From the sequence record PP925840.1: a stretch of 64,000 nt of DNA; one strand, given 5' to 3'. The DNA is from Escherichia phage SholemSchwarzbard. The notes under the pieces are model-generated. The model did not search any database. It had not been told where the DNA came from and worked only from the letters and a program-made list of their open reading frames with translations. Shown here one piece after another: positions 60,201 to 61,767 of this stretch. Position numbers and translations under genes: made by a program. How positions within the stretch are numbered: position 1 is the first letter of the stretch; each line of letters opens with the position of its first letter.

Positions 60201-60951
60201 GATGAATAATGGCATAGCTGTTCGCAGCGCTGCTTTATTCTATAATAGCATAAACGTCAAAGATAATGGTTCTATTAACTTTGATAAATCAGGCGCTAAC
60301 CCGAGAAATATGAGAATATTTCATGCTGGCGATGCTTCTCGCGGTAACCGTATTGAAATTGCCGATGAAACTAACTATATTGCTTACTTTGAAAAAGCTC
60401 CAGGTGGAGCTAACCGCTTTGTAGTAAATAATGCTACTGTAGCTGGTGTTAATCAAATGAATTCATTTGGTATTAACATCAATAACGCGCTTGGTGGAAA
60501 TAGTATAGCATTTGGTGATAATGACACGGGTATTAAGCAAAACGGCGATGGATTATTAGACATTTATGCGAATGGTGTGCAAACGTTCCGTTTCCAAAAC
60601 GGTGATTTGTACTCATATAAAAATATAAATGCCCCAAACGTTTATATTCGTTCTGATATTCGCTTAAAATCTAATTTCAAACCTATCGAAAATGCACTTG
60701 ATAAAGTTGAAAAACTCAATGGTGTCATTTATGATAAAGCTGAATACATCGGTGGAGAGGCAATTGAAACTGAAGCGGGTATTGTGGCTCAAACGTTACA
60801 AGACGTTTTACCAGAAGCTGTCCGTGAAACAGAAGACAGCAAGGGTAATAAAATACTCACTGTTTCTTCTCAAGCCCAGATTGCTCTTCTGGTTGAAGCT
60901 GTGAAAACACTTTCTTCTCGTGTAAAAGAACTTGAATCTAAACTTATGTAA
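57268..60951 (+). CDS. 37: Long tail fibre distal subunit gp37 (1227 aa), T2-type with C-terminal chaperone domain
   Basis: N-terminus conserved with T4 gp37 as recalled; 1227 aa versus 1026 recalled for T4; C-terminal about 99 aa carries an SDxRxK motif. Confidence 0.93.
60652..60948 (+). other. C-terminal intramolecular chaperone / autoproteolysis (peptidase S74-like) domain of gp37
   Basis: Motif SDIRLK at the domain start followed by a helical region ending in a coiled coil (VKELESKLM). Confidence 0.6.
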
Positions 60952-60952
60952 A

Positions 60953-60970
60953 AGAGGGCCGAAGCCCTCT
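60953..60970 (+). terminator. Hairpin AGAGGGC-CGAA-GCCCTCT between genes 37 and 38
   Basis: Perfect 7-bp stem with CGAA loop; followed by AAGGA RBS rather than a T-tract, so probably an attenuator. Confidence 0.5.
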
Positions 60971-60981
60971 AAGGATTTTTA

Positions 60982-61767
60982 ATGGCAATTGTAGGTGTTC
61001 CTGGCTGGATTGGTGAATCTGCCGTGAATGAAACTGGACAACGTTGGATGGATGCTGCAATGAGAGCAGTCCGTGTTTCAGTTCCCGGTTGGATGAGCTC
61101 AATGGCCGGACAATCTAAAGAAGTATATTACAGCATTGGTGCTAGTAATTCTTATAATAAAGATACATTAATAAACTGGATAAAAGCACAAGGGTCCACG
61201 CCTGTTGTTATTACTATTACAGGAAATATCGTTTCTTCATCAGCGGGTCAACCATGTTTAGATTTTCCTAGTTCATTAACTAACTCATATGTAACGCTTA
61301 ATATTAATTCGGGTGTACATGTCTGGGGTCGTGGTGGTAATGGCGGAAATAATTCTGCAGGTGGCGCAGGTGGTACTGCTATAAACAATGCAATAGGAAC
61401 CAGATTACGTATTAACAACAATGGGGTTATCGCAGGAGGCGGTGGTGGCGGGGGAGGCGGATATTATTCTCCTTTTTCACAAATGAGATTAACCTTTGGC
61501 GGTGGTGGCGGTCGTCCATTTGGTGCTGCTGGCGGGTCTGCTAATATGGAACAGGGCGCTACTGCTGGTACTATTTCTGCACCTGGTAAAGGGTCTGTCA
61601 ATGGTATCTATAATGGCGGGAATGGCGGTGATGCTGGTGCCGCAGGTGGTAAATGTAATATTCGTGGGCAAGGATCAGAATATAACGGCGGGGCGGCTGG
61701 TAAAGCTGTTACTGGTAATGCTCCAACTTGGACTAAAGTTGGTACAATATACGGTTCAAGAGTATAA
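60982..61767 (+). CDS. 38: Receptor-recognising adhesin gp38 (T2-type), 261 aa
   Basis: N-terminus MAIVGVPGWIGESAVNETGQRWM; C-terminal domain with glycine-rich blocks (GGGGGGGGGYY, FGGGGGRPFGAAGG) separated by variable segments. Confidence 0.9.
   Translation: MAIVGVPGWIGESAVNETGQRWMDAAMRAVRVSVPGWMSSMAGQSKEVYYSIGASNSYNKDTLINWIKAQGSTPVVITITGNIVSSSAGQPCLDFPSSLTNSYVTLNINSGVHVWGRGGNGGNNSAGGAGGTAINNAIGTRLRINNNGVIAGGGGGGGGGYYSPFSQMRLTFGGGGGRPFGAAGGSANMEQGATAGTISAPGKGSVNGIYNGGNGGDAGAAGGKCNIRGQGSEYNGGAAGKAVTGNAPTWTKVGTIYGSRV

Follow-up and report, generated by a model that had tools for sequence, protein, structure and literature searches.

Gp37 and gp38 of Escherichia phage SholemSchwarzbard: a predicted Tsx-binding tail-fibre tip of the T2/T6/S16 design

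What stands at the distal end of the long tail fibre of Escherichia phage SholemSchwarzbard, and which protein of the host surface would it recognize? The question is raised by genes 37 and 38 of this phage, which lie towards the 3' end of the stretch of 64,000 nucleotides analysed here as a whole (the window; sequence record PP925840.1), and it concerns the fate of the gp37 C-terminus, the class of gp38 and the receptor. The initial annotation had placed at 60652-61767 a T2-type receptor-recognition module, made of gp37 with an autoproteolytic chaperone tail and a glycine-rich gp38 adhesin, and these coordinates proved exact, opening with the first codon of the chaperone tail and closing at the gene 38 stop codon. 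The analysis points, with a probability of about 0.9, to the receptor-recognition end of a long tail fibre of the T2/T6/S16 design in a Tequatrovirus, with a cleavable gp37 chaperone, a gp38 cap and Tsx as the receptor. The gene structure, the family membership, the conserved catalytic and docking residues and the identities of the loops are direct observations at this locus, and the elements in question are the following (aa, amino acids; PGII, polyglycine II; ORF, open reading frame):

57268-60651, plus strand: predicted mature gp37, distal long-tail-fibre subunit, aa 1-1128, ending in ...NAPNVYIR (ORF; Pfam gp37_trimer and Gp34_trimer)
60649-60654, plus strand: predicted autocleavage site R1128 / S1129, NVYIR^SDIRLK (alignment with the S16 and fPS-phage sites)
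60652-60951, plus strand: C-terminal intramolecular chaperone domain of gp37, aa 1129-1227 (99 aa), and stop codon (Pfam Peptidase_S74)
60982-61107, plus strand: gp38 N-terminal gp37-attachment domain, aa 1-42, with W9, W22 and W37 (Pfam Gp38_N)
61108-61326, plus strand: gp38 linker and central beta-helix domain, aa 43-115 (6F45_D alignment; domain names from PMC6851490)
61327-61767, plus strand: gp38 polyglycine (PGII sandwich) specificity domain, aa 116-261, and stop codon (Pfam GP38; 6F45_D and 9V85_A alignments)

In gp37, the motif SDIRLK, which had been noticed from the outset as that of self-cleaving chaperones, occupies aa 1129-1134 of the translation, starting at nucleotide 60652, and the domain that it opens, first estimated at approximately 99 residues, runs for exactly 99 residues from S1129 to the C-terminus. 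The Pfam family Peptidase_S74 (PF13884, “chaperone of endosialidase”) matches aa 1129-1186 with an E-value of 3.4e-15 and 56.5 bits over profile positions 1-58 of 58, the curated Pfam cut-offs being 22 bits for this family and 25 for each of the families GP38 and Gp38_N (PF21721) considered below. The domain is placed at the extreme C-terminus, as the last 99 of 1227 aa, in a protein that also carries gp37_trimer and Gp34_trimer, and the same S74 domain is found by Pfam in gp37 of T2 and of S16. When the C-terminal 199 aa were compared with solved structures, the gp37 tip aligned with S16 gp37 (6F45_A, E 6.6e-13) and the C-terminus weakly matched the autoprocessing domain of human MYRF (7DC3, E of about 1e-3), with SDIRLK aligned to ADLRAK; S1129 and K1134, the lysine at +5, are in register both with SDRRIK of S16 and with this MYRF sequence. 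In the S74 family, the Ser-Lys dyad is formed by S911/K916 in endosialidase and by S587/K592 in MYRF. The members of this family known from the K1F endosialidase, T5 pb1, phi29 gp12 and MYRF likewise have a C-terminal domain starting with the serine of S-D-x-R-x-K, but here the domain would serve a fibre that is later capped by a separate adhesin, and similarity to the members from outside the T-even phages is low.

The sequence around the predicted site, NVYIR^SDIRLKS, aligns with the cleavage site of S16, DLNVS^SDRRIKK, and a site DVYIR^SDGRLKI has been predicted for the fPS phages (PMC7917993). In S16, the released chaperone exposes the docking surface for gp38 (PMC7917993; also PMC7289586), and gp37 of T2 and T6 is cleaved C-terminally by proteolysis and then capped by gp38 (PMC3157838, PMC13030884). 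The tail of SholemSchwarzbard gp37 is identical to that of Bas39 and RB18 at 99/99 positions, to that of T2 and Sf24 at 98/99 and to that of JK38 at 80/99. Cleavage of gp37 in this phage therefore seems a very safe expectation from the near-identity of its tail to that of T2, taken together with the literature on T2/T6 and S16. The primary source for the cleavage of T2/T6 gp37 is said to be the work of Drexler, Riede and Henning in the Journal of Molecular Biology (1986). The last 80 aa of the gp37 tip upstream of the site are identical at 79/80 positions to Sf24, 77/80 to Bas39 and 55/80 to T2, and the tip of the mature protein is predicted to be the docking surface for gp38.

Gp38 is a protein of 261 aa with the poly-glycine blocks that had been recognized at first reading: glycine makes up 22.6% of the whole chain and 32.7% of aa 115-261, with runs at G152-G160 (nine glycines) and G173-G177 (five glycines), as well as nine GG pairs. 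It belongs to two Pfam families, GP38 (PF05268) over aa 47-261 (241.2 bits, E 1.4e-71) and Gp38_N over aa 1-42 (64.6 bits, E 8.2e-18), and these matches, like that to Peptidase_S74, are far beyond chance. With phmmer, gp38 matched the crystal structure of S16 gp38 (6F45_D) with an E-value of 1.4e-48 and 46-48% identity, and the receptor-binding domain of PP01 gp38 (9V85, E 2e-32), an entry identified as the PP01 gp38 structure in PMC12892980. The residues W9, W22 and W37 of the attachment domain align with the tryptophans of S16 and recur in 10 of the 11 adhesins of the alignment; in S16, three gp38 tryptophans dock into the gp37 trimer, giving a (gp37)3-gp38 architecture (PMC6851490). In general, the resemblance to S16 (PDB 6F45) covers the fold families of both proteins, the docking tryptophans, the poly-G helix 3 and the SDxRxK site, while identity is only about 46%, S16 binds OmpC of Salmonella by different, shorter loops, and it has a chaperone tail of 112-113 aa. 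From the identity to 6F45_D and the match to 9V85, gp38 would adopt the PGII sandwich fold. In the alignment of 11 sequences, the invariant glycine blocks GRGG, AGGGGGG, GGGGGRP and GGAAG alternate with variable loops, and the variation among relatives is concentrated in these loops, as had been anticipated for an adhesin of this kind; alignment with T2, T6 and the others delimits five of them, A to E. Gp38 is accordingly to be regarded as of the adhesin type, and by comparison with S16, T2, T6 and PP01 it is expected at the fibre tip in the virion. In many database records, gp38 of the adhesin type still bears the label “distal long tail fiber assembly catalyst”, inherited from the T4 annotation and wrong for this family.

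The loops were numbered by anchoring them on Q167/M168 and G208 of T6 and, through structure alignment, on loops A-E of PP01 gp38, as defined in PMC12892980. The T6 residues Q167 and M168 lie within hypervariable segment (HVS) 2 and G208 within HVS3 (PMC3157838). The loops are:

61345-61362, plus strand: loop A, aa 122-127, GNNSAG (position taken over from PP01 loop A; same sequence in JK38 and Bas39)
61462-61497, plus strand: loop B (HVS2), aa 161-172, YYSPFSQMRLTF (alignment)
61534-61551, plus strand: loop C, aa 185-190, GSANME (same sequence in JK38 and Bas39)
61597-61611, plus strand: loop D, within HVS3, aa 206-210, VNGIY (identical in T6, JK38, Bas39 and RB5)
61657-61680, plus strand: loop E (HVS4), aa 226-233, NIRGQGSE (identical in the four Tsx binders T6, JK38, Bas39 and RB5)

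Loop B is identical to that of RB5 and one residue off those of T6 (S166P) and of JK38 and Bas39 (R169K), R169 being the residue state common to the Tsx binders T6 and RB5, and loop E differs in T2 and in OmpA binders, where it reads NTHGTGTE or NTQGNGTE. T6 and RB5 are Tsx-dependent phages (PMC3157838), Bas39 was Tsx-dependent in the plaque assays of the BASEL tables (PMC8594841 supplement), and tsx was the top hit for both Bas39 and JK38 in random barcode transposon sequencing (RB-TnSeq) screens. Bas39 (FriedrichMiescher) and JK38 share 255/261 residues of gp38 with SholemSchwarzbard (98%), and their five loops are identical to those found here except for R169K; the differences consist of the beta-helix substitutions S86Q, A88T, Q90V and S102A, of A137G, and of gp37 shafts that are not the same. 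Since the loops match those of JK38 and Bas39 except at R169, which is itself the T6/RB5 state, and since all four phages depend on Tsx, the best prediction for the primary receptor is the Tsx nucleoside channel and not FadL/OmpF as in T2. The closest relative, Shigella phage Sf24 (MF327008.1), shares 260/261 residues of gp38 (99.6%), R169K being the only difference, as well as the gene order 36-37-38-t-asiA, but its gp37 has 1287 aa vs 1227 here, and its shaft is only about 72-75% identical, in patches, upstream of about 59444.

The initial annotation had called gp38 a T2-type tip adhesin and not a T4-type assembly chaperone. As to class this holds, on the evidence of GP38 and Gp38_N, of 6F45_D and of the tryptophans; as to specificity it does not, the loops being T6-like and the predicted receptor Tsx. 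The architecture is shared with T2, a FadL/OmpF phage, as are the cleavage context PNVYIR^SDIRLKS, which is identical, and 41 of the 42 residues of the attachment domain; however, the specificity domain is only 55% identical, all five loops differ, and T2 gp37 has 1341 aa. Since all the T2 loops are different, the receptor should differ from that of T2, and the reading of “T2-type” as a FadL/OmpF specificity was rejected. With the Tsx adhesin of T6 the relationship is reversed: identity reaches 79% in the specificity domain, with loops D and E the same and loop B one residue off, but falls to 67% in the attachment domain (98% with T2) and to 34% in the beta-helix. The gp37 tip and chaperone of T6 are also of a different subtype, with a tail of 113 aa (42/113 identical) and the site SDVYIR^SDSRLKI; the subtype of T6 and RB5 can be written as DVYIR^SDxRLK with a tail of 113-117 aa, that of T2 and of the phage studied here as PNVYIR^SDIRLKS with a tail of 99 aa. 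At the nucleotide level, a T6-like similarity of 91.7% sets in abruptly at 61297, at the end of the beta-helix segment and just ahead of the first glycine block, and extends through t and asiA. Position 61297 marks the point at which, by recombination, a 5' part of T2 type was joined to a 3' part of T6 type within gene 38, and gp38 is a chimera, in which a T2-type attachment domain, together with its gp37 partner, is joined to five receptor loops of T6 type. Since the gp37 tip and the attachment domain are both of T2 type, the attachment domain has stayed with its cognate tip, and the loop cassette is that of the Tsx lineage. Modular exchange of this very kind has been described (Trojet et al.).

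The assignment to Tsx, and the module as a whole, have to be weighed against what speaks otherwise. It is from homology that cleavage, the stoichiometry of capping, location in the virion and the receptor are deduced, and the role of S1129/K1134 as a putative Ser-Lys dyad is drawn from alignment and from knowledge of the S74 family. PST, which differs from T6 in 3 residues, gained the use of OmpA (PMC3157838), and RB68, with one HVS3 residue different from RB51, uses OmpW instead of OmpF; the receptor of the closest relative, Sf24, isolated on Shigella flexneri, was not found in the literature searched. All these points count against the reading given above, and because such small loop changes changed the receptor in PST and RB68, a specificity that is shifted or broadened is conceivable, given the gap of six residues to the phages that were tested. 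The architecture could be as described and the receptor be something other than Tsx, or not Tsx alone, for example OmpA or a Shigella-specific surface protein, with S86, A88, Q90, S102, A137 and R169 shifting or broadening the specificity. The switches by one to three substitutions and the Shigella origin of the nearest relative would fit such a case, as would the phylogenetic closeness of the “Type 1” OmpA adhesins to the Tsx adhesins. However, two of the six differences from JK38 and Bas39 (A137 and R169) fall in the specificity domain, A137 in a conserved stretch outside the five loops and R169 in the state of T6 and RB5, and loops C, D and E are the same as in JK38 and Bas39, whereas the OmpA binders EV240 and RB49 are clearly different in loops B, D and E. 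RB49 gp38 is 75% identical overall, but this likeness resides in the beta-helix (85%), and OmpA specificity was rejected as a candidate. A receptor beyond Tsx is on this balance unlikely, and Tsx is retained as the predicted one.

The two alternatives that touch the architecture itself fare less well. According to one, gp38 is an assembly chaperone of the T4 style that stays outside the virion, and the receptor is recognized by the C-terminus of gp37; several records do annotate the homologues as “distal long tail fiber assembly catalyst”. BLASTP, however, detected no similarity between this protein and T4 gp38 (E = 20 over 23 residues), and T4 gp38 matches no Pfam family, while gp38 here belongs to the adhesin families, so that no family is shared and the T4-type reading is excluded on these grounds; moreover, the homologue in S16 was crystallised bound to the gp37 tip, and T4 gp37, unlike the gp37 described here, has by Pfam a Collar/needle and fibre-repeat tip and no S74 domain. 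An assembly chaperone is thus scarcely credible. According to the other, the S74-like tail is kept in the mature fibre as an inactive relic or a structural cap, for which the span of the S74 match, covering only the first 58 of the 99 residues, may be adduced. The serine and the lysine at +5 are nevertheless in register with those of S16 and MYRF, the tail is nearly that of T2, whose gp37, like that of T6, is reported to be cleaved, and a retained tail would block the site on which gp38 docks, given that in S16 cleavage lays bare the surface on which gp38 docks, and that the attachment domain of gp38 is intact here. Retention of the tail is therefore held to be very improbable, and a cleaved, gp38-capped gp37 is preferred.

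The mechanism that would follow from a cleaved and capped fibre can be outlined by analogy with the phages mentioned above. Gp37 would be synthesized with its 99-residue C-terminal intramolecular chaperone of the Peptidase_S74 type, and three copies of this chaperone would nucleate the trimerisation and folding of gp37, starting at the fibre's C-terminal end. Ser1129, with Lys1134, would then cut between R1128 and S1129, and the chaperone would depart. The tip so exposed, ...NVYIR, would be capped by one copy of gp38, whose W9, W22 and W37 would enter three equivalent pockets on the gp37 trimer. In its C-terminal half, gp38 would arrange the invariant glycine blocks as polyglycine-II helices in a lattice, presenting the five variable loops at the distal end, where they would bind an outer-membrane receptor of the host; the loop set, being as in Tsx-dependent phages, would direct this binding to Tsx.

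Upstream of this tip lies the shaft of gp37. The part encoded at about 57457-59400 has no close match among 50,697 phage records, in which the best whole-protein identities for gp37 are 78.5% (Sf22) and then 76.9% (K3), and one record only, that of K3 (82%), covers at least 80% of gene 37 at the DNA level. Over 57457-59400, relatives with 92-96% identity downstream of about 59410 are similar only in patches, at 70-80%. The shaft reads as a new mosaic combination of fibre-shaft segments, a divergence that is normal for gene 37 of T-even phages. In the record of Shigella phage JK38, gene 37 (1-2052 of the stretch examined) is annotated as two overlapping coding sequences, and the 265 nt at 59630-59894 of the window match JK38 gene 37 at two places, which suggests an internal duplication or a frameshift in that record.

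Between the two genes of the module lies a small element that differs from its counterpart in the relatives:

60953-60970, plus strand: intercistronic hairpin AGAGGGC-CGAA-GCCCTCT, with a 7-bp GC-rich stem, between the gene 37 stop codon and the gene 38 ribosome-binding site
60971-60975, plus strand: Shine-Dalgarno-like AAGGA, 6 nt upstream of the gene 38 ATG (read from the sequence)

In Sf24, T2, JK38, Bas39 and RB18 the hairpin reads AGAGGGC-TTCG-GCCCTCT, and the loop CGAA found here is the exact reverse complement of their TTCG. The 60-nt junction matches 88 phage records at 90-95% identity, none reaching 95%; the 12 records listed among these matches are each identical at 56/60 positions (93.3%), which is the price of the four loop positions by themselves, and none of the 88 would thus share the inverted loop. 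In IMG/VR, the two loop variants gave 0 and 1 matches, too few to be of use. The inversion deprives the mRNA of its C(UUCG)G tetraloop but hardly alters the predicted stability, which goes from -13.4 to -12.5 kcal/mol. Intrastrand template switching, classically described in T4, produces loop flips of this sort in palindromes. The one seen here is probably neutral; an artefact of sequencing or assembly is also possible. It could also be imagined that the inverted loop is functional, in that the loss of this extra-stable tetraloop directly before the gene 38 ribosome-binding site alters mRNA stability or the gp37:gp38 expression ratio, and, separately, that the new shaft mosaic together with a gp38 combining T2-type attachment and T6-type loops gives a host range that Tsx alone would not predict, but this is considered improbable. 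The reading of the hairpin as a true intrinsic terminator was not favoured: its U-run is split from the stem by the AAGGA of the gene 38 ribosome-binding site, and its stability has a z-score of -1.7.

The module is embedded in a setting typical of the group. The 3' part of the window is a canonical T-even long-tail-fibre operon on the plus strand, followed by asiA and arn-like genes on the minus strand; the order 36-37-38-t is the same in Sf24, T2, T6 and S16, and a megablast search with 40000-64000 matched hundreds of Tequatrovirus genomes at about 95% identity. The genes and signals of the region are:

51496-51503: late-promoter motif TATAAATA upstream of gene 34 (motif scan)
51538-55407, plus strand: gp34 (ORF list)
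55416-56531, plus strand: gp35, hinge protein (ORF list)
56563-56570, plus strand: T4-type late-promoter motif TATAAATA upstream of gene 36 (motif scan)
56594-57259, plus strand: gp36 (ORF; Pfam Phage_T4_gp36)
57268-60951, plus strand: gp37 (ORF, 1227 aa)
60982-61767, plus strand: gp38 (ORF, 261 aa)
61799-62455, plus strand: holin t (Pfam Phage_holin_T, E 5e-116)
62456-62728, minus strand: asiA homologue, abutting the end of holin t

The motif TATAAATA occurs 18 times in the window vs 8.5 times expected by chance, and the scan for it found no late promoter directly before gene 38. From what is known of T4 late promoters, the copy at 56563 is likely to be the start of a late transcript of 36-37-38(-t), and genes 36, 37 and 38 are probably co-transcribed, because such a motif is present before gene 36 and none before gene 38. 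At 62498-62530 on the plus strand there is a strong terminator-like hairpin of 14 pairs, followed by a T-rich tail, within the asiA homologue of the minus strand; it could terminate the late 36-37-38-t transcript from within a convergent gene. In gp35, aa 58-127 match the Pfam family ILEI (interleukin-like EMT inducer, PF15711) with an E-value of 3.4e-08, above the curated cut-off.

The module is already known and well characterised, near-identical sequences are deposited and close relatives have been tested experimentally, so that the current understanding of these fibres is unchanged. What is added here for SholemSchwarzbard is the prediction of Tsx, the proposed cleavage site R1128/S1129, the map of the loops and the combination of T2-type attachment with T6-type loops. 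The locus illustrates the modular exchange of three pieces, namely a gp37 tip and chaperone of T2 type with the matching gp38 attachment domain, a loop cassette of T6 type, and a gp37 shaft unseen elsewhere in such a combination. The value of the analysis lies in annotation, in that the host range of the phage may be read from the five loops of gp38 and may be re-engineered through them.

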